From: an uncultured Bacilli bacterium
GTDB taxonomy: Bacteria; Bacillota_I; Bacilli_A; RF39; UBA660
DNA length: 64,000 bases
Direction of reading: 5' to 3'
NCBI GenBank assembly: GCA_934155645.1
Contig: CAKPHC010000004.1
Location: 81,220-145,219 of the forward strand
The position numbers and the translations under genes were made by a program. Below are positions 9,583 through 29,819 of this stretch, one piece after another. The stretch's first letter is position 1. Each line of letters starts with the position of its first letter. The notes beneath the pieces were generated by a model. The model did not search any database, was not told where the DNA came from, and saw nothing but the letters and a program-made list of their open reading frames with translations.

Positions 9583-9781
9583 TACAAGTAATCAAGAAAA
9601 CTTTAAACAATATAATAAAAATAATAATATGAGAAAAAATATAGGTCCTGTTATAGAATATGATAATGAAGGTAATATCATATCTTGGAATGGTAAACCT
9701 ACTGTATCAGAACCTATGAGTAAAGAAGAAATAAAAGAATTAGAAGCATTAATAAATGAAATAACAAAAGGAGATGAATAA
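9470..9781 (+). CDS. Overlapping +1-frame ORF; plausible C-terminal continuation of the 9256 gene across an A8 tract
   Basis: This ORF overlaps the previous one in a different frame. An A8 homopolymer at about 9548-9555 is where the two frames could be joined by a 1-nt indel. Confidence 0.25.
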   Translation: MVILFYSMIRKKKIISKEKLWYQKYSKKRISDIQKNLNTSNQENFKQYNKNNNMRKNIGPVIEYDNEGNIISWNGKPTVSEPMSKEEIKELEALINEITKGDE

Positions 9782-13759: not shown

Positions 13760-13833
13760 AGGGGCGTAGTTAAATGGTATAATAATGGTCTCCAAAACCA
13801 CTGTTGGGAGTTCGATTCTCTCCGCCCCTGCCA
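13760..13833 (+). tRNA. trnW: tRNA-Trp (anticodon CCA)
   Basis: The sequence AGGGGCGTAGTTAAATGGTATAATAATGGTCTCCAAAACCACTGTTGGGAGTTCGATTCTCTCCGCCCCTGCCA has a cloverleaf with anticodon loop CTCCAAA and an encoded CCA end. It is near-identical in architecture to Bacillus tRNA-Trp. Confidence 0.9.
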
Positions 13834-18519: not shown

Positions 18520-19530
18520 ATGAAAGAAGTATATTCAAATAAAATAAAAGAATCTTTAAAATTAGGCAATAGAAGATTGATAATAACAATTATATTAGTG
18601 CTTATGACTATAGGATTTATAGTATGGGCGGTTATAGATAGTCAGAAAGAATATCCAACTCCTAAATATTTAAATAATGTAATTATGGAAGGCAAAAATG
18701 AAGAGGGAGTTTATTCTTGCGTAAATGTTACGGCAATTCCTTATGTTTTTGCTGAAACTTCCACTAACGAAATGGAGAATAAATACTATTTTATCCGCGA
18801 TGACAACTATTTCTATATAGCGTACCTAGATTACAAGACTTTTAGTTCTTTAAATCATGAATCTATTGAAGATAATCCAGTAGCAATATGTGGAATGACA
18901 TCATCAATTGAAAGTAATATAAAACGTCTTGCAATAGAAGTATATAATAGAGATATGGAAAGTGAAGTTGTAAATGATTCAAACTTTAACAATTATTTCG
19001 GTGGTGTATATCTTGATGTTGTTGCTGACGTAAATGATATAACAGTTCAAATATGTCTTGCCATCATAACAGGAGTATTTGCAATAATAATTGGTGCAAT
19101 AACAATCGTATTCAAAACTAAAACTAAGAAATTTATTAAAAATGTAACAGCTGAAGAATGGCAACAAATTAATAATGAAATAGAATCTTCAGATACCAAG
19201 TATTACAAGCAAGCAAAAATATATTTAACTAAAAACTACTTAATAGATTTTTCAAATTGCTTATATGCAGTTAAATATTCTGATATTGTATGGCTATACC
19301 CATATGAATTAAGACAAAATGGTATAACAACTGCCAAAAATTTAATAGTCTTTGACAAATCTTTTACTAAACATACAGTTGCAGGAATAGGAAGTTTAGG
19401 CAAGAAAAATAAACAAATATTTGAAGAGATAACAAATGAAATTCTAAGTAAAAACAAAGATATAATTTGGGGATTTAACAGTGAATCAAAAGAAAAATTC
19501 AAAGAATTAAAGCAAACTAAAAGAGGTTAA
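18520..19530 (+). CDS. Hypothetical membrane protein (2 TM)
   Basis: ORF with a GGTGAG RBS and two hydrophobic helices. A terminator hairpin spans the stop codon. Confidence 0.5.
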   Translation: MKEVYSNKIKESLKLGNRRLIITIILVLMTIGFIVWAVIDSQKEYPTPKYLNNVIMEGKNEEGVYSCVNVTAIPYVFAETSTNEMENKYYFIRDDNYFYIAYLDYKTFSSLNHESIEDNPVAICGMTSSIESNIKRLAIEVYNRDMESEVVNDSNFNNYFGGVYLDVVADVNDITVQICLAIITGVFAIIIGAITIVFKTKTKKFIKNVTAEEWQQINNEIESSDTKYYKQAKIYLTKNYLIDFSNCLYAVKYSDIVWLYPYELRQNGITTAKNLIVFDKSFTKHTVAGIGSLGKKNKQIFEEITNEILSKNKDIIWGFNSESKEKFKELKQTKRG

Positions 19531-20774: not shown

Positions 20775-21422
20775 ATGAAAAAAGTATTATTATTTCTTAA
20801 AAAAAATTTAAAATGGATAGTTAGTTTAATTACTTTAATAATGTTTATAGCTATAGTAAGAAACATATATGCAAATGAAATAGCAAGCTTTGATAATTTC
20901 TACTATGGATATATATCAAAACTTATTTCTGACCAAATGACTTTCTTTGTCAAAGTAATAACTAATTTAGGTAGTGCCTATGCACTTATATCTATTGCTG
21001 TCTTAATGTTATTGATTCCTAAAAAGAAAATATATGGTATATTAACTAGTATTAATTTAGTAACTATCTTTTTACTAAACTTATTACTTAAATATATTTT
21101 TACAAGACCAAGACCTACCGACATAAATTTAATAAAAGAACTAGGGTATAGTTTTCCATCAGCCCATGCGATGGTTGGAACTGCTTTTTATGGCTTCTTG
21201 ATTTATCTAATATGGCAATCAAATATTAAAAATAAACAGAAATGGTTTTATTCAATTTTACTAGGAATTTTAATTATACTAATTTGTATAACAAGGATAT
21301 ATTTAGGAGTTCACTTTGCTAGTGATGTCTTTGGAGGATTCTTAATTTCAATATCTTACCTAGTATTATTTACAAGTATTATTAAAAAGTATTTACCCAA
21401 TAAAAAAGTTCCTACAGAGTAG
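20775..21422 (+). CDS. PAP2-family phosphatase (undecaprenyl-diphosphatase-like)
   Basis: The three PAP2 motifs are present: KYIFTRPRP, PSAH and TRIYLGVHFASD. The protein has multiple TM helices. Confidence 0.8.
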   Translation: MKKVLLFLKKNLKWIVSLITLIMFIAIVRNIYANEIASFDNFYYGYISKLISDQMTFFVKVITNLGSAYALISIAVLMLLIPKKKIYGILTSINLVTIFLLNLLLKYIFTRPRPTDINLIKELGYSFPSAHAMVGTAFYGFLIYLIWQSNIKNKQKWFYSILLGILIILICITRIYLGVHFASDVFGGFLISISYLVLFTSIIKKYLPNKKVPTE

Positions 21423-22923
21423 GAATTTTTTCTTTTGTAGCTGGAGTAGCATGTTCATGTCCCCAGGTTCTAATTTTATTAATTTTTTCAGGATTAGTCT
21501 TAGATAATGAAACTGTATTATTAAATGCATCAATAAATGTATTTTGAGTTAATGTAATATTATTTGCAACAACTTGATAAGCAATTTCTCTAATACATGA
21601 CTCTAAATCTGAACCAGCAAAACCTTTAGATAATTCAACTAATTTGTTTATAAACTCATCATTAACTTTAACATTTAAATATTTAAGTAAATATAATTTA
21701 ATTATTTCAGCACGTTCATTATCACTAGGTAAGTCTACAAAGAACATTTCATCGAATCTTCCTTTTCTAAGCAATTCAGCAGGAAGTGAATCAATATTAT
21801 TAGCAGTAGCTACCACGAATACTTCTTTTTTGCACTCTTGTAACCAGAATAAGAATTGTCCAATCATACGATTAGTAACACCAGAATCACCGGATGTACC
21901 AGACAATCCCTTTTCGATTTCATCTATCCATAGTATACAAGGAGAAACATGTTCAGCAGTTTCTAAAGCTTCCTTTAACTGTTGTTCACTTTGTCCAACA
22001 TATCTTCCTTGAACTGTAGCAAAGTCTAGTAAATATAAAGGCATTTGCCATTTAGCAGCAATTGCTTTAGCAGATAAGCTCTTACCGCAACCAGGAACAC
22101 CTACGATTAAAATGCCTCTAGGTGGCTTAATACCTCTTTTAATCATTTCTTCTTTTTTATCAGGTGCAAGTAACTTTTTCTTTTCATCTAACCAGTCTTT
22201 TAATCCATCTAATCCACCAAATGCAATGGAAGGGTCTACTTCAATTTTTTCTAGTCCGTTTATATCAGAAAACATACTATCCTTAGCAAATTTCAAATCG
22301 ATTAAGTCACTCTTTAATAAAGAACCTTTAGCAATTAGAGAAGAAATAACATTTTTAACTTCAACTTCACTTAATCCTAGTAGAATTGTAGCAGCTTCTT
22401 TAAAATTATTGGTGTCCCATTCAATAGTAATTTGACCTTGATAAGGATTAGTGCAATTTGTAATCAAGTTATATAATTCCTTTTCATTTGGAAGAGCAAG
22501 TTCAATATTCATACCCATACGTTGTAGATTAGTCCAAATAGGGGAAGAAGTAATAACTATAATAGAACCACCTTTTTCTTCAGCTGTTGTTACTATATCA
22601 TTTAAATATCTAGAAACTGTGCTTTCTGTCTCTAACTCGGATACATCAGTCAATACAAAAGTAGCATTTTCTTTTACCTTTATTTGTTCACCAATGAAAT
22701 CAAGTGCTCCCATAATTGTTTTTTCATCACTAATCAATTCGTTATTAGTAACAGAAGTAATCCCTTTAGACATAGAGAAAACATTAATAGGTAGATTTAG
22801 TTCATTAGATAAATCCTTTAAAAGTGCTAGGGCACGATTCTTTTCAATTGTTTTAATAGCTATAAAAGGAATTCTTGCTAAAAGATATTGTCTCATTAAT
22901 TTTTTTGTTTCTTCATAATTCAT
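21412..22923 (-). CDS. AAA+ ATPase (classic-clade, CDC48/FtsH-like single AAA domain with about 270-aa N-terminal domain)
   Basis: Walker A (GILIVGVPGCGKSL), Walker B (ILWIDEIEK) and sensor/Arg-finger region (ATANNIDSLPAELLRKGRFD). A GGAGG RBS precedes the start. It is the last gene of a 4-gene operon. Confidence 0.8.
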   Translation of the reverse strand: MNYEETKKLMRQYLLARIPFIAIKTIEKNRALALLKDLSNELNLPINVFSMSKGITSVTNNELISDEKTIMGALDFIGEQIKVKENATFVLTDVSELETESTVSRYLNDIVTTAEEKGGSIIVITSSPIWTNLQRMGMNIELALPNEKELYNLITNCTNPYQGQITIEWDTNNFKEAATILLGLSEVEVKNVISSLIAKGSLLKSDLIDLKFAKDSMFSDINGLEKIEVDPSIAFGGLDGLKDWLDEKKKLLAPDKKEEMIKRGIKPPRGILIVGVPGCGKSLSAKAIAAKWQMPLYLLDFATVQGRYVGQSEQQLKEALETAEHVSPCILWIDEIEKGLSGTSGDSGVTNRMIGQFLFWLQECKKEVFVVATANNIDSLPAELLRKGRFDEMFFVDLPSDNERAEIIKLYLLKYLNVKVNDEFINKLVELSKGFAGSDLESCIREIAYQVVANNITLTQNTFIDAFNNTVSLSKTNPEKINKIRTWGHEHATPATKEKIPTL

Positions 22924-22926
22924 AAT

Positions 22927-23367
22927 TTAATCCTCCAAAACATTTATTTTACTGTTTTTAACTAAAGTCATTATTTCACCAGTAGTATCTATTCCTTGAA
23001 CACTGTTTTCAATTGCTTCATTTATTTCGTTAGCAAATTTTTGTAATGTTTCACTGAACTTCTTTTTATTTTCATCAGGTATTATTGGTAAATTAATTAT
23101 TTTCTTTGAAAACGCTAGTTCTTTTTTGATATTTATTATTTCAAGTGATAACAAATTAACGTCATTGTTACTAGATATTTTATGTAGTGTACCTTCTAAA
23201 GCATTTTTAAGTCTAGTTCTTACCAAATTATTTACGTGTTTTATAAAACGATAAAGCATATTTCCATCTAATTCGATTGAACTATTATAAAGCTTCTCTA
23301 ATAAAACTTCATCTCTAGGACCAGACTTTAAAATATCAAAACTATTAATCCACTCATAGTAAGTCAT
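22927..23367 (-). CDS. Hypothetical protein (146 aa), operon partner of the AAA+ ATPase
   Basis: There is a 4-nt gap to the ATPase gene. An AAGGAGAG RBS precedes the start. Confidence 0.5.
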   Translation of the reverse strand: MTYYEWINSFDILKSGPRDEVLLEKLYNSSIELDGNMLYRFIKHVNNLVRTRLKNALEGTLHKISSNNDVNLLSLEIINIKKELAFSKKIINLPIIPDENKKKFSETLQKFANEINEAIENSVQGIDTTGEIMTLVKNSKINVLED

Positions 23368-23549
23368 TATCGATTCACTCTCCTTACTACTTCATAAGGA
23401 GGTGTTAAATCCCAATCGGGTAGACCAGTTACAAATGCTTGGGCTTGTGTTTCAACACTTTCTTCATGCTTATCATCATCTTTAGTTATAACTTTTTCTT
23501 CATTATTATCTTCAGTATTTACATAAGTAAAAGTATCATCGTTATCCAT
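23367..23549 (-). CDS. Small acidic protein (about 60 aa), operon partner
   Basis: The start was reassigned to an internal ATG preceded by GGAGGT. The protein is highly acidic with a basic C-terminal tail (LPDWDLTPPYEVVRRVNR). Confidence 0.4.
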   Translation of the reverse strand: MDNDDTFTYVNTEDNNEEKVITKDDDKHEESVETQAQAFVTGLPDWDLTPPYEVVRRVNR

Positions 23550-25284
23550 TGTTACCTCCATCTATAATTATATTTCTACTATTAGAAGTATCAACTTTAA
23601 TATAATCTTCACAATTAAATGAATTAATGTAATTTATAAATTTTTCTCTATCTTTCATACTATCTTTATAAATAAAGTAATAATCTACTATTTCAGCAAT
23701 TATATTAGATAATAAAACTTTATGTTGCTTTTTAATATCATTTAATTGATTTATCTTATTTTCGCGTTTTGAATAGTTTTTGATAAATTCTACAACATTA
23801 AAGATTAATACAATACAGAAAATTATAGCGGCAACAATAGGTTGCTTTAATGTTAAAAATATACCTAATAGACCAATTACAATTGATATTAACATTTTTA
23901 AATTGAACAAGCGGTCACTGTATACCTCATCATGAAATTTATCATCTAAGAAACTAGCAATATTTTTTTGTAATTCAATTTCATTGCTACCATTTTTAGT
24001 TGACCCAGTCCAGTCATTAATAGTTATATTAATATCAGGTAACAAGTCAATAGATTTATATTTAGATATATTTGAATATCCATCAATAATAAAGTTTTTA
24101 GATAATGCGATAGCAAACTTTTTAGTATCAAGACTAGCATCAACATTATTATTAATTGCAATATTAGTAATGTGACTATAAAAATTATTGGTTTCTTCTA
24201 AAGCAATACTAGTTTTATTAAACTTATCAAGAGCTTTAGAAATATCACCGTTTTCTTCAATGATATGTTTATTCTTTTGAATATCGCGTTTTAATTGTAA
24301 TTCCTCTTTATCATAATTAAATACTAATATGTGTAATAAGTTATCTATTTTATTTGTAGTACTAACTTTTTTATATTGCTTTTCTTCCATAGTATTTTTT
24401 AAATCATTATAAATATTTTTGTGTACTCTAGAAGAAGAAATAACATCATGAATCATTTCACTTTCTATAACATATTTATCAATATATGGGAATTCATTAT
24501 CATTGATTGCTTCTAATTTTTCTCTAAAGTATTCTTCCCATCTCTTAATTTCATTAGCTTTAATCTCGTTATAACTATTTAGTTCTAAAACCCACTCATT
24601 AACTTTTTCTAAACAAGTTTTCTTAGCACTAGTCCCAAATACTCCACTGGTAATAGCATCTAGCACCGTTATAATTTTACTTTCCATTTTAGTTGGGTCT
24701 TGCATATTTAAATATCTATTCAACCATTTCATTGATGTATCAATTCTATTAGCCCTTAAATGTACTAAGCAAAATAATAATGAAGTTTTTTCATCGTCTC
24801 TAGCCATTGCTTCTTTTAAAGCTTTATTAGCAAGTTCTTTATTATTTGTATACCATGAACAAAGTGCCACCATAGCAGGGGATAACCAATAATCAGGAGT
24901 ATTAACGATTGTTTCTTCACTTATATTTTCTACAGTACTTTTCTTAATTGCATTTATATCTACTGATTGAAGTAATCCATTAACACGTCTTCTAACTTCA
25001 TCTCTATGACTAAATTTTTTATTGAACTCAGCTTGGTCCATCAAAATAGTTTGCCTAGCATTAGAAACAATAGTACCTTGTTTAATTTCTACCATAAATT
25101 TCTTTATTTCTTCTTCTAGACTTTTAACATCATTTTTAACGGTATTTACTTGTCCTTCAACATCATTGATATGACCATTAACAGTGTTTACATTATTAGA
25201 TACAGTACCGATATTATTTGCTAAAACTTGTAGATTGTTTTCTAAAGTAGCCAAGTTAGCCGCACTAATTACTAAAGTACTCAT
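23542..25284 (-). CDS. Coiled-coil protein with two C-proximal TM helices (580 aa), first gene of the AAA+ operon
   Basis: N-terminal coiled coil, an internal helical region and the hydrophobic hairpin LISIVIGLLGIFLTLKQPIVAAIIFCIVLIF. It has its own extended -10 promoter (TGATATAAT), and a terminator hairpin lies upstream. Confidence 0.55.
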   Translation of the reverse strand: MSTLVISAANLATLENNLQVLANNIGTVSNNVNTVNGHINDVEGQVNTVKNDVKSLEEEIKKFMVEIKQGTIVSNARQTILMDQAEFNKKFSHRDEVRRRVNGLLQSVDINAIKKSTVENISEETIVNTPDYWLSPAMVALCSWYTNNKELANKALKEAMARDDEKTSLLFCLVHLRANRIDTSMKWLNRYLNMQDPTKMESKIITVLDAITSGVFGTSAKKTCLEKVNEWVLELNSYNEIKANEIKRWEEYFREKLEAINDNEFPYIDKYVIESEMIHDVISSSRVHKNIYNDLKNTMEEKQYKKVSTTNKIDNLLHILVFNYDKEELQLKRDIQKNKHIIEENGDISKALDKFNKTSIALEETNNFYSHITNIAINNNVDASLDTKKFAIALSKNFIIDGYSNISKYKSIDLLPDINITINDWTGSTKNGSNEIELQKNIASFLDDKFHDEVYSDRLFNLKMLISIVIGLLGIFLTLKQPIVAAIIFCIVLIFNVVEFIKNYSKRENKINQLNDIKKQHKVLLSNIIAEIVDYYFIYKDSMKDREKFINYINSFNCEDYIKVDTSNSRNIIIDGGNNG

Positions 25285-25356
25285 ATAAACACCTTCCTAT
25301 TCTATAAAAATTATATCACATTAAATAAAAAAGCAAAATAAAAAAGAACCGAAGTT

Positions 25357-25896
25357 CTAATTATTTTGTGAATAATAAACGTAACCAATGATTTCAATAA
25401 CAGAATAAACCATTATACAAAGACCAATCATCTTGAAAACAAGATTACTTCTTAAAATCATATATATTCCACCAGCAATCATTAATCCTGCTAAAACAAT
25501 TAATATTCCATAAGAACTATCATTAGCTTTCCTACCTTTAATAGAATTAACAAGAAGATTAATACCGTTAAACAATATCCATGCTCCTGTAAGAACTCTT
25601 ATAAGTACTTCAACCGCATTAGAAAAAATTACTAATATAAGACCAGATAACAAAGCCACAATACCTATACTTAAATCTCTTATAAAAACTTCTTGTTCTT
25701 TTTTTCTAGCAATACTATAACTAATAATTTTAAATAATCCAACGACGATAAAGCAACCACCTAAAACATATGCAATGAACTTAACCGTACTATTTGGATT
25801 AGTAAAAATAATACTACCTATAATAAAAAATATAATTGCACTTATTAAACTAGTAATATTTGAATAGTTCTTATCCTTTAATTTATTTAACTCCAT
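25357..25896 (-). CDS. DUF308 (HdeD-like) membrane protein
   Basis: Multi-TM small protein. An AGGAGG RBS precedes MELNK. It is followed by a hairpin and T-tract terminator. Confidence 0.55.
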   Translation of the reverse strand: MELNKLKDKNYSNITSLISAIIFFIIGSIIFTNPNSTVKFIAYVLGGCFIVVGLFKIISYSIARKKEQEVFIRDLSIGIVALLSGLILVIFSNAVEVLIRVLTGAWILFNGINLLVNSIKGRKANDSSYGILIVLAGLMIAGGIYMILRSNLVFKMIGLCIMVYSVIEIIGYVYYSQNN

Positions 25897-28415: not shown

Positions 28416-29819
28416 ATGAAGAAGTTTAATTGGAAACTCTATTTAATTTTCGCAGGTATTTTATTGTTTGCACTATTTAATTTTGGCTTTGGTAATGATT
28501 ACTATTGGCACGTTAAAGCAGGGGAATACATGGTAAATAATTTAAAAATTCCTTATCACGATATATTCTCTTGGTATGGAATTAGTAACAACCTTTACTG
28601 GATGAGTCACGAGTGGTTAAGTGAAGTGGTCTTATACATTTATAGATACATTTTTAAAGGACTAGGACCGTTGATATTTAATCTAAGTATGTATCTGCTT
28701 CTAATAACAGTAATATATAAACACAATAAAGAAAAACTAGAAAAAAACAAAATCTTTACTTTCCTTTGGGCTTTAGTAGGATTCCTAATCTTTTCTAAAG
28801 TAATGCTTCCAAGACCTCATATGATTAGTTACACTTTACTAGCTTTCACAATTTATATTTTGTATGATAACTTTAACAATAAAAATTCTAAAAAAATTTA
28901 TTTTTTACCTGTAATAAGCCTATTGTGGGCAAACTTCCATGGTGGTTCATCTAATCTTCCATATGTATTATGCTTTATGTTTATGATTGTTGGATTATTT
29001 AGTTTTAAATTTGGAAAAGTTGAAGCTAAAAGAATAGATAAAAATCAAATAAAAAAGTATTTGATTTGTGGGCTATTAAGTATATGTGCTATTGCTATTA
29101 ATCCTCATGGATTAAAAATGATTACATATCCATATATAAATATGGGTGACAAACTAATGCTTAGTAATATTGTTGAGTGGGGTTGTCCAGATTTAAATGA
29201 TTTTGGTGATATAGCAGCTTTTGCTGTTTTAGGACTAGTTATAATAACGATGATTATATCGAATAAAAAAATAAAATTAATAGATTTAATAACTTTAGGA
29301 GCTTTCTTGTTCCTAGGATTTAAAAGTGTAAGATTTGTTCCACTACTATATATAGCTGCTACTTATGCTATCTTTAATATAGTAGAAGATTTTAAACTAA
29401 ATTTACCTAGTAAAGCATATATAATAATTTTATCCACAATTGTTGTGTGCTTTGGAATTCTTACTCCTAAATTAATAAGAAATTACAATAAAAAACCTAT
29501 TTCTGATACTGCAATAAATTATATAAAAGATAATAAACCTAAAAGATTATTTAATTATTACAATTATGGTGGATATTTAATATATAATGATATAAAAGTT
29601 TTTATTGATGGTAGAGCAGATATGTATTCTAAATATAACTTTAAAGATGCAGTTGATTTACAAGATAGGGGATATAAATATTTATTAGATGGCTATAATT
29701 TTGACATGTTAATAATTCCTAATAATATAGCTTTAAATATTCATTTATCAAATAATAATGATTATATGGCAGTATTCCAAGATGATACCACAGTAATCTA
29801 CGAAAAGAAGACAAAATAA
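28416..29819 (+). CDS. Polytopic membrane protein, possible GT-C-fold glycosyltransferase-like
   Basis: At least 10 predicted TM helices across 467 aa. No diagnostic motif was recognised. Confidence 0.4.
   Translation: MKKFNWKLYLIFAGILLFALFNFGFGNDYYWHVKAGEYMVNNLKIPYHDIFSWYGISNNLYWMSHEWLSEVVLYIYRYIFKGLGPLIFNLSMYLLLITVIYKHNKEKLEKNKIFTFLWALVGFLIFSKVMLPRPHMISYTLLAFTIYILYDNFNNKNSKKIYFLPVISLLWANFHGGSSNLPYVLCFMFMIVGLFSFKFGKVEAKRIDKNQIKKYLICGLLSICAIAINPHGLKMITYPYINMGDKLMLSNIVEWGCPDLNDFGDIAAFAVLGLVIITMIISNKKIKLIDLITLGAFLFLGFKSVRFVPLLYIAATYAIFNIVEDFKLNLPSKAYIIILSTIVVCFGILTPKLIRNYNKKPISDTAINYIKDNKPKRLFNYYNYGGYLIYNDIKVFIDGRADMYSKYNFKDAVDLQDRGYKYLLDGYNFDMLIIPNNIALNIHLSNNNDYMAVFQDDTTVIYEKKTK

Follow-up and report, generated by a model that had tools for sequence, protein, structure and literature searches.

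A 64,000-nucleotide stretch of DNA from an uncultured Bacilli bacterium (GenBank assembly GCA_934155645.1, contig CAKPHC010000004.1, positions 81,220 to 145,219; hereafter the window) contains four minus-strand open reading frames (ORFs), A, B, C and D, which lie head to tail and are translationally coupled, as read directly from the sequence. In the ORF list, gene A (25284..23542) encodes a protein of 580 amino acids, gene C (23367..22927) one of 146 and gene D (22923..21412) one of 503. The ORF list and the gene junctions together give gene B (23549..23367) a length of 60 amino acids; a start at 23561 would give 64. D is an AAA+ ATPase, and its operon partners are a predicted membrane protein (A), a small peptide (B) and a fast-evolving protein (C). 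Comparison across genomes showed that A-B-C-D is a conserved functional unit that has been carried repeatedly by mobile elements. An earlier note, made from the letters of the window alone, had described a self-contained four-gene operon at this position, and both the junctions and the occurrence of the same gene order across phyla bear this out.

The 3′ end of A reads …GGT AAC AAT GGA TAA and contains the ATG at 23549, giving an 8-nucleotide overlap between A and B (ATGGATAA). Because a GGAGG lies 5 nucleotides upstream of this ATG, B likely starts there and is 60 residues long. B and C overlap by 1 nucleotide (TAATG), and C is separated from D by a 3-nucleotide gap, with a GGAGG upstream. 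The earlier note had both overlaps right but had counted 4 nucleotides in the C/D gap. Upstream of A, we read from the sequence an intergenic control region (25310..25358, minus strand) that holds a hairpin, an extended −10-like element and a ribosome-binding site. The hairpin (AGAAC-TTCG-GTTCT, followed by a T-run, at 25358-25339) lies just past the stop codon of the upstream DUF308 gene, the −10-like element TGATATAAT occupies 25318-25310 and the ribosome-binding site AGGAAGGTG directly precedes the start codon of A. The motifs behind the hairpin terminator and extended −10 promoter claimed for this region are therefore present, but a consensus scan called neither of them, as the stem contains just 2 G-C pairs and a good −35 is missing. 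At the level of sequence, the upstream hairpin and TGATATAAT are best taken as motif matches and not as functional evidence. Downstream, the convergent gene that had been noted is a PAP2 gene (20775..21422, plus strand), which overlaps the 3′ end of D by 11 nucleotides (21412-21422). A bidirectional terminator-like hairpin (21403-21431, both strands) spans the stop codons of D and PAP2, with 13 pairs on the plus strand, 7 on the minus strand and T-runs after each.

D combines a conserved motor module with a conserved N-terminal domain. Pfam finds a single AAA domain in D (PF00004 at residues 271-397, E value 9e-30), within an active classical AAA module that, together with a C-terminal helix and tail, spans residues 226-503 (21412..22248, minus strand). 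This module contains a Walker A motif (GVPGCGKS, residues 275-282), pore loop 1 (RYVG, residues 307-310), a Walker B motif (ILWIDEIE, residues 330-337), the sensor-1 residue N375 and the arginine fingers R386 and R389. The Walker A and B motifs, the pore loop, N375 and R386/R389 are invariant in the alignments, which comprise 30-31 homologues. D has every feature expected of a classical-clade AAA+ protein that threads its substrate, namely Walker A, Walker B, an aromatic pore loop and the arginines of the second region of homology, and the PF00004 match and the invariant motifs agree with the classic-clade assignment made earlier. The best matches of D among PDB sequences were VAT and the D2 domain of p97 (E value 1e-64), and D also matched phrog_8638 end to end, with residues 10-498 aligned to profile positions 25-541 of 568 (E value 3e-89).

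The part of D in front of this module had been described as a domain of about 270 residues of unknown specificity. AlphaFold modelling and Foldseek comparison instead identify residues 1-225 (22249..22923, minus strand) as a degenerate AAA-like (D1-like) domain that lacks a Walker A motif. It is modelled as an alpha/beta core with a helical lid at a predicted local distance difference test score (pLDDT) of ~90, compared with 84 for the whole model, and the position of the P-loop is occupied by IKTIEKNRAL. The domain is highly conserved, for example at A16, R17, I18, P19, E27, R30, G54, R135 and G137. In Foldseek, the full-length D model aligned over ~530-600 columns with the D1-D2 chains of p97, Cdc48 and Rix7, with a TM-score of up to 0.68. 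These models suggest that the N-domain is a degenerate AAA domain that gives D a p97-like D1-D2 fold. A search with the N-domain alone returned mostly fragments and no informative names.

A lacks a signal peptide, and both of its ends are predicted to be cytoplasmic. Its AlphaFold model (pLDDT 79) begins with an Asn/Val-rich N-terminal coiled coil at residues 8-106 (24967..25263, minus strand), formed by helices 8-35 and 40-106 with pLDDT values of 50-80. This coiled coil is presumably an oligomerisation element, and its matches were weak and confined to generic coiled coils (sigma-1, Lpp and a phage tail needle). It is followed by a helical-repeat (TPR-like) domain at residues ~115-255 (24520..24942, minus strand), which alignment and model mark as the most conserved block of the protein. 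The block is modelled as helical repeats with pLDDT values of 80-90, and its invariant residues include P130, Y132, W133, W144, E165, T167, S168, R177, W187, Q195 and P197. The only TPR proteins that Foldseek returned for the A model were weak matches (PilF/PilW, probability ~0.6, E value > 0.1). We consider this block a candidate docking site for the conserved motif of B described below. Near the C-terminus, sequence and model agree on a transmembrane (TM) helical hairpin at residues ~458-505 (23770..23913, minus strand), with the loop TLKQP and basic flanks. The model has helices at 462-477 and 482-554, so that a long cytoplasmic C-terminal helix runs to ~554 beyond the TM hairpin; other helices and a small beta element are also present. 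All aligned members retain the hydrophobic hairpin, as do the Chryseobacterium, Streptococcus and Fusobacterium versions. Both large parts of A should therefore lie on the cytoplasmic side, together with B, C and D. The N-terminal coiled coil and the C-proximal TM hairpin were both features of A in the earlier note, and both are there in sequence and model.

We built an alignment and a profile from 31 A homologues. An exhaustive search with the hidden Markov model among 1.84 billion representatives found 876 clusters at 50% identity, of which 430 scored below 1e-30, and almost all were 550-600 amino acids long. The number of clusters and their uniform length indicate a family that is diverse and fixed in architecture, yet rare. 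A has no family in Pfam, NCBIfam, PADLOC or PHROGs, and its Streptococcus and Chryseobacterium versions matched nothing in PADLOC or PHROGs either. Its profile matched only generic coiled coils or noise among PDB sequences, and a Foldseek search of its model against PDB and BFVD gave nothing with an E value below 0.06, with weak likeness to TPR, SMC and coiled-coil proteins.

B consists of an acidic, low-complexity N-terminal part (net charge −11), a conserved motif and a basic tail; the acidic peptide of about 60 residues ending in LPDWDLTPPYEVVRRVNR that had been read from the window is indeed encoded there. Family comparison placed the core motif, LPDWDLTPP, at 23397..23423 (minus strand). 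The family consensus is [LF]-P-x-W-[DNS]-[LI]-x-P-[PLA], usually with a basic tail after it, and this is the sole conserved element of B. We found the motif in 23 of 23 B peptides and additionally in mini-peptides at three loci (L022-L024; positions ~4540-4600, ~2710-2770 and ~9700-9770, respectively). The mini-B peptides are 19-21 amino acids long, comprise little beyond the motif and lack the basic tail (L022: MNEDVVKLPDWDLLPPVTIGG); they fall below the usual gene-calling length. The N-terminal part ranges from highly acidic in the window to neutral in other members, and in a Defluviitaleaceae genome (L025, 3155-3349) the acidic part is replaced by a CxxC…CxxC zinc ribbon, which is followed by GLPDWSIEPP. 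Since the motif is invariant while the remainder of B spans 0 to ~50 residues, B appears to act as a free-standing short linear motif. Its last residues are not conserved (…VNR, …RQK, …KTQ, …IGG). B matched no family in Pfam, NCBIfam or PADLOC and no annotated PHROGs family. Its likely partner is A, because A and B persist as a pair in Chryseobacterium oncorhynchi (L027, 7902-9794), where both are intact and C, D and E, a fifth gene described below, are missing.

C is a putative adaptor or regulator. Its alignment of 17 members has a mean column identity of 31%; a (T)Y-x-(E/D)-W motif at the N-terminus is near-invariant, and one arginine (R52) is invariant. From its sequence, we assume a helical fold. 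C has no family in Pfam, NCBIfam or PADLOC and matches nothing annotated in PHROGs, and Pfam, PADLOC and PHROGs likewise gave nothing for the C of Streptococcus and Chryseobacterium. When the window was compared with related loci in which the operon lies beside the formate-tetrahydrofolate ligase gene fhs (L007-L019), D was 60-65% identical, A 45-48% and C 27-36%. B and C evolve faster than D, and such a rate asymmetry is typical of conflict systems.

The linkage of these genes extends well beyond the window. An A profile search of contigs from one genome per species yielded 37 A-centred loci. By tblastn, D lies immediately downstream of A in 30 of the 37, and one further locus ends at a contig edge. 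C was found by tblastn in 27 of the 30 A-D loci and B directly in 18; ORF and motif scans found B in every A-D locus examined (in L022-L024 by its motif). The hosts of the 37 loci are gut Bacilli, metagenome-assembled genomes (MAGs) labelled Mollicutes/Tenericutes, one Defluviitaleaceae MAG and seven Chryseobacterium species or MAGs. The A-B-C-D linkage also holds in six of six plasmid, satellite and viral loci, so that the conservation of the four-gene linkage in other genomes, for which a neighbourhood search had been called for, is evident from both sets. Beyond the 37 loci, the cassette is carried by Fusobacterium vincentii, two Komagataeibacter nataicola plasmids, a Comamonas antarctica megaplasmid, the Streptococcus satellite phage Javan368 and two IMG/VR contigs (L042 and L043). 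With these, the unit spans gut Bacilli, Bacteroidota, Fusobacteria and Proteobacteria. The cassette occurs in 4 of 72,556 plasmid records and in 1 phage-collection record. In the annotated records that we examined, A, B, C and E are called 'hypothetical protein' and D is called 'AAA family ATPase'. The F. vincentii record (NZ_CP084075.1; L041) is filed as 'plasmid pSB055A' with one annotated feature; at 2.1 Mb it is evidently a chromosome. Judged by eye, the cassette in this record lies just downstream of apparent tRNA genes (~7200-7500).

A is also found by itself. Four Chryseobacterium loci (L028, L033, L034 and L037) have A with no D nearby. An intact orphan A that is 45% identical to the A of the window occurs in another lineage (P0089; L124, 10001-14037, and L125, 1232-5268), where it is followed by an unrelated gene for a 313-residue membrane or secreted protein and an IS110 transposase gene, with no B, C or D nearby. 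We considered whether the 313-residue gene might be a truncated D and rejected this, because the two are unrelated. A Logan contig (L127, 140-4163) shows two inverted A+B copies face to face, most likely a palindromic assembly artefact.

Outside the gut Bacilli, the cassette is repeatedly cargo. In Javan368, a satellite of 14 kb, it takes up the final third, behind the genes for integrase, regulator and replication. On a 26-kb Komagataeibacter plasmid it has an IS3 transposase gene on one side and, ~1.8 kb beyond D, an integrase gene on the other, with RelE/ParE a few kilobases away. In L043 it is beside two large serine recombinases, and in L042 it is beside a HerA/FtsK-like ATPase (1014 amino acids, weak score), which we read as a conjugation-type ATPase. 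A single Chryseobacterium slot, between a TPR histidine kinase/LuxR pair and GNAT/EngB, holds E-A-B-C-D in C. elymi (L030) and A-B with unrelated genes in L027. By eye, the genes that follow A-B in L027 encode TM2-domain-like, YegP-like and HsdR_N-like proteins. Antiviral systems are documented as cargo of phage satellites (PMC9122126).

Outside the gut Bacilli lineage the cassette includes the fifth gene, E (~160 amino acids), and the four-gene size given in the earlier note holds only within that lineage. E lies downstream of D in Streptococcus (L038, 13775-14257), Fusobacterium (L041, 12980-13474), Defluviitaleaceae (L025, 5449-5943) and L043, and upstream of A in Chryseobacterium (L030, 7502-7981), Komagataeibacter (L039, 1106-1576), Comamonas (L040, 8429-8914) and L042. 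Its invariant residues are K92, C93, G96, P98, E100, H102, H113, G117, P121 and E140. We did not find E in the window or in any gut Bacilli locus (tblastn, with nothing at an E value ≤ 1 in the window). The Streptococcus and Chryseobacterium versions gave no match in Pfam, PADLOC or annotated PHROGs, and the E profile gave only generic coiled coils or noise among PDB sequences. In every cassette that contains E, D ends in a basic-hydrophobic tail (…RKVLV, …RRTIII, …RRAVLLG), and C has a tail of the same type (…RKIIF, …RRILL) in Chryseobacterium and in the proteobacterial-type cassettes L039, L040 and L042. Cassettes that lack E have a D ending in …KIPTL, …ETLI or …LEVL, and the D of the window ends in …KEKIPTL. 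The presence of E thus covaries perfectly with the type of D tail (L025-L043 versus L001-L024 and the window). This covariation suggests that E reads the basic-hydrophobic tails of D and C, either by binding or by processing them.

The surroundings of the operon in the window are those of a low-G+C (~26%) Bacillota chromosome. The flanking genes are ordinary and encode phosphoribosyl pyrophosphate (PRPP) synthetase, PAP2, DUF308, formate-tetrahydrofolate ligase (fhs) and YetF. The closest MAGs are labelled 'uncultured Bacilli bacterium' and come from the guts of humans and animals. A class B RNase P RNA (62590-62927, 273.6 bits) is ordinary and fits a Bacillota host, and a lone tRNA-Trp(CCA) (13760-13833) fits such a host with the standard code. 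Positions 1-8000 have a G+C content of 19.5-22%, a strongly positive GC skew and an ORF of 1168 amino acids (242..3748). Two further ORFs, at 18520-19530 (336 amino acids, with a central TM segment) and 28416-29819 (467 amino acids), have no Pfam family; in the closest MAGs (L001-L003), the 336-residue gene again neighbours the gene for PRPP synthetase.

What follows on the contacts among the partners, on the substrate and on the biological role we infer from these observations. A function in defence or in membrane remodelling is plausible. Our tentative preference, which we would stop short of calling probable, is that the cassette is a mobile, membrane-tethered AAA+ unfoldase module that serves in conflict, against phages or other mobile genetic elements, or in protecting the envelope during attack. 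D would form a two-tier, p97-like ring in which the degenerate D1-like tier serves assembly and docking and the aromatic pore loop of the active D2 tier threads polypeptide. Held in the membrane by its hairpin, A would present its coiled coil and helical-repeat domain to the cytoplasm, and the motif of B would most likely plug into the conserved groove of A. C would be a rapidly evolving adaptor that, together with B, links A to D or controls this link. The system would be switched when D uses ATP to unfold or pull out a target at the membrane, whether A itself, B or a foreign protein that enters the cell. The cassette would spread on plasmids, a phage satellite and integrative elements, and it has settled beside fhs in one gut Bacilli lineage. 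We favour a conflict role because of the rarity and patchiness of the cassette, its carriage as mobile cargo, the variability of the Chryseobacterium slot and the antiviral habit of satellites (PMC9122126). A more specific form of the proposal, possible but on the unlikely side, is that these genes represent a new class, an immune or exclusion system that satellites, plasmids and integrative elements have spread across at least four phyla, in which a micropeptide motif ([LF]PxWDΦxP) couples or gates a p97-like unfoldase to a hairpin-anchored scaffold. By analogy, such a class would be a bacterial counterpart of eukaryotic p97-cofactor logic at the membrane.

Several observations weigh against a conflict role. 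In the lineage of the window the operon divergently adjoins fhs in at least 15 species-level genomes whose fhs genes are 58-92% identical to that of the window, and L126 offers a third housekeeping context; such a stable site among housekeeping genes would not be typical of a defence system. Another Bacilli lineage has the operon between RNase HII/methyltransferase genes and bipA. The flanks show no enrichment of known defence genes: 83 ORFs from 12 loci included 1-2 HerA-like genes and 1 E1-E2-like gene, and on these counts we dropped the idea of defence-island enrichment. D is ~50% identical between phyla, like a core enzyme, and the orphan A indicates that A neither depends strictly on partners in cis nor is a toxin that needs B. 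The library of defence systems that we searched was PADLOC-DB 2.0.0 (2023) only. A membrane proteostasis or stress role comes close behind because of the stable, housekeeping-type residence in gut Bacilli. Such a resident module would carry out membrane-protein quality control or envelope remodelling, with A as a receptor that hands damaged or mislocalised proteins to D, as in Msp1, p97-dependent endoplasmic-reticulum-associated degradation and FtsH, with B and C as adaptors and with the copies on mobile elements as incidental passengers. The position beside fhs, kept across deeply diverged gut Bacilli MAGs, and the ordinary flanks speak for this, as do the similar rates of D (60-65% identical) and fhs (59-64%) in L007-L019. 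The wider D-like family (31-33% full-length identity) likewise adjoins DUF2997, DUF1257 (ycf35) and ferredoxin genes, and the operon of cyanobacterial ycf46, a putative relative, is stress-induced. However, a housekeeping module would not be expected to be as rare and patchy as the counts of clusters, plasmids and phage-collection records given above, to travel repeatedly on a satellite, plasmids and integrative elements, to vary in content at one Chryseobacterium slot or to have a fast-evolving B and C, and no protease domain was found in the four window proteins by Pfam or NCBIfam. We consider such a housekeeping role rather unlikely.

Carriage on mobile DNA would also suit an addiction or competition module, in which A is a latent membrane-damaging effector, B (with C) its inhibitor and D an ATPase that continually remodels or removes the inhibitor, such that loss of the element or entry of a rival leads to membrane damage or exclusion. 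The setting of the mobile copies (small plasmids with RelE/ParE, insertion sequences and an integrase, a satellite, and an element with serine recombinases) fits this idea, as do a small, labile-looking peptide beside a large membrane protein and the TM hairpin with its long amphipathic helix, which has a faint likeness to the alpha-pore-forming toxin SmhB (probability 0.2-0.35, not significant). An intact A with no B nearby argues against toxicity in the absence of B, chromosomal inheritance in gut Bacilli is stable, and we saw no likeness to known toxin or antitoxin families in Pfam, NCBIfam or PADLOC; such a module is improbable. The length and disordered look of B recall Pup, which is a disordered protein of about 60 amino acids, and raise the prospect of Pup-like tagging and degradation, with B as a modifier or degron for D and E as a ligase or peptidase. 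In its AAA core, D is a relative of proteasomal ATPases (PAN, TIGR01242, E value 8e-34; Mpa-ARC, TIGR03689, E value 7e-17), E has an invariant cysteine and two invariant histidines, and D carries a different C-terminal tail where E is present. However, the variable last residues of B leave no Gly-Gly-Gln/Glu-type (GG[QE]) conjugation end, mini-B peptides of ~20 amino acids hold little beyond the motif, and the Pup ATPase model gives D 61 bits where 505 are required, the PAN model 117 where 500 are. Furthermore, no PafA/Dop ligase, proteasome or peptidase family is present among A-D of the window, E has no Pfam family, and E is absent from the lineage of the window. These sequences largely refute a Pup-like system, which we regard as very improbable. 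A sporulation or germination module analogous to SpoVK, which the earlier note had raised, has in its favour a low-G+C Bacillota host (class B RNase P; closest MAGs labelled Bacilli) and one related locus near ylbD/ylbE-like genes. Its distribution refutes it: the cassette occurs in Chryseobacterium, Fusobacterium, Streptococcus, Komagataeibacter and Comamonas, which do not form spores, and no SpoVK model appeared among the NCBIfam matches of D listed down to an E value of 1. We give this explanation hardly any credence.

Classical AAA+ unfoldases in bacteria are mostly known as partners of proteases, such as FtsH and Mpa. Free-standing p97-like machines with dedicated cofactors are generally regarded as archaeal and eukaryotic. 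Here, a predicted p97-like two-tier ATPase comes with its own fixed set of three or four partners that belong to no known family. One of these is a peptide that is in essence one docking motif, and the partner set moves between phyla on mobile DNA. If a role in defence or exclusion is correct, the cassette would represent a new effector logic, an unfoldase-driven action at the membrane, and a system that defence-island methods overlook on account of its frequent housekeeping surroundings. If its role is in stress, the cassette would offer a handle on the wider family of ~500-residue two-domain AAA ATPases, possibly including Ycf46. The culturable carriers Streptococcus oralis (U-o2), F. vincentii (SB055), Chryseobacterium spp. 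(such as C. elymi) and K. nataicola make the question testable.

D belongs to a known type of enzyme; we found neither the cassette nor its three or four partner families nor the micropeptide motif described in the libraries and literature that we searched. We compared A, B, C and E from four hosts with PADLOC-DB 2.0.0 and obtained nothing better than an E value of 0.01, and D falls far below the cut-offs of all NCBIfam families listed, with no SpoVK, EccA or CbbX model among its matches down to an E value of 1. We found no description of the cassette in the literature on AAA+ proteins with satellites or defence, on tandem or degenerate AAA operons or on Cdc48-type defence. The NCBIfam, PADLOC and Pfam results uphold the earlier statement that the set cannot be matched to a type VII secretion system, SpoVK, Pup/Mpa or the TRIP13 form of the cyclic-oligonucleotide-based anti-phage signalling system (CBASS), and a type VII secretion reading is not supported.

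The closest known parallels of D are p97/Cdc48/VAT and Rix7, with which it shares a D2-type AAA sequence, D1-D2 superposition and intact motifs. Like p97, D probably also uses short linear motifs and its C-terminal tail to engage cofactors. However, p97 has two Walker-bearing AAA domains and an N-terminal double-psi-barrel domain, whereas the D1-like tier of D has no nucleotide-binding motifs and D starts directly at the D1-like fold. Against the CDC48 model (TIGR01243) D scores 120.2 bits with a cut-off of 802.65, and the match is confined to residues 235-466, which align with the D2 part. A, B and C are unrelated to the p97 cofactors Ufd1/Npl4 and to UBX and PUB proteins. PAN and Mpa have a coiled coil and OB domain at the N-terminus and an HbYX or GQYL C-terminus, whereas D has an alpha/beta AAA-like N-terminus and ends in the tail given above. 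D scores 85.5 bits against 650 for CdvC/Vps4 and has no MIT domain by Pfam; it scores 97 bits against 600 for FtsH and has no TM segment or M41 protease domain. Msp1/ATAD1, FtsH, Vps4-ESCRT-III and NSF-SNAP-SNARE offer an analogy of working principle only, in which an AAA+ ring is brought to a membrane-anchored coiled-coil partner by adaptors or motifs; ESCRT-III, SNAP, SNAREs and tail-anchored substrates have no homology to A, B or C.

Among defence systems, IetAS comes closest. IetA is the best PADLOC match of D (E value 1.6e-31), over the AAA core only (residues 255-489), and IetAS resembles the cassette in being AAA+-based and carried on mobile DNA. D scores 78.5 bits against 510 for IteA (NF042959), no IetS-like protease is present, and A, B and C have no counterpart in IetAS. 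The match of D to CBASS TRIP13 (E value 7e-4) covers ~50 residues only, and the operon contains no HORMA or CD-NTase gene.

The relatives of D that align along its length come from phages, plasmids and cyanobacteria. The phrog_8638 family, which D matches end to end, has no known function, and nearly all phage and viral-contig relatives lack A, B, C and E. D-like proteins with 26-43% identity over residues ~5-500 are common in viral contigs, and none of these has A, B, C or E nearby. Others, at 31-33% identity, are found on Bacillus, Paenarthrobacter, Rhodococcus and cyanobacterial plasmids; on a B. cereus plasmid the D-like gene is beside a DUF2997 gene and a gene for a 4Fe-4S protein. The ATPase of a Pseudanabaena plasmid is 33% identical over D residues 13-490 and is collinear with D along its full length, including the N-domain. 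Its gene lies in a cluster on pPg_01 of Pseudanabaena galeata (L129, 826-9713) with genes for a PIN toxin, GrpE, an Hsp70-family protein, DUF1257, an ATP-binding protein, a PD-(D/E)xK-looking protein of 167 amino acids, DUF2997, the AAA ATPase, a hypothetical protein of 734 amino acids and a transposase. This cluster may be another uncharacterised multi-gene system around a sister ATPase.

Ycf46-like AAA ATPases of ~500 amino acids have the same length and two-part architecture as D and lie in operons with small proteins of unknown function. The wider family of D-like proteins looks like the one that includes the poorly understood Ycf46, a lead to which a COG name given by the Joint Genome Institute also points. 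DUF1257 corresponds to ycf35, which clusters with DUF2997 and fed7 in cyanobacteria (DUF2997-ycf35-fed7; PMC4284462), and the ycf46 gene of cyanobacteria belongs to an operon of three genes that is induced by stress (bioRxiv 10.1101/2025.07.21.665879). The DUF2997/DUF1257 neighbourhood has no A-like membrane protein. We rejected the idea that B and C are diverged DUF2997 and DUF1257 proteins of a Ycf46-type variant, to which they are unrelated (hhalign probability < 1%). A 'YxEW' hexapeptide common to C and the 167-residue Pseudanabaena protein was dismissed as chance, the latter looking like a PD-(D/E)xK enzyme. The clade linked to A, B and C is at least 45% identical to D; identity drops to 26-43% for the copies in phages and beside DUF2997, and these copies have no A, B, C or E. 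By sequence, then, the ATPases at or above 45% identity to D appear to be a distinct branch with a partner set of its own.

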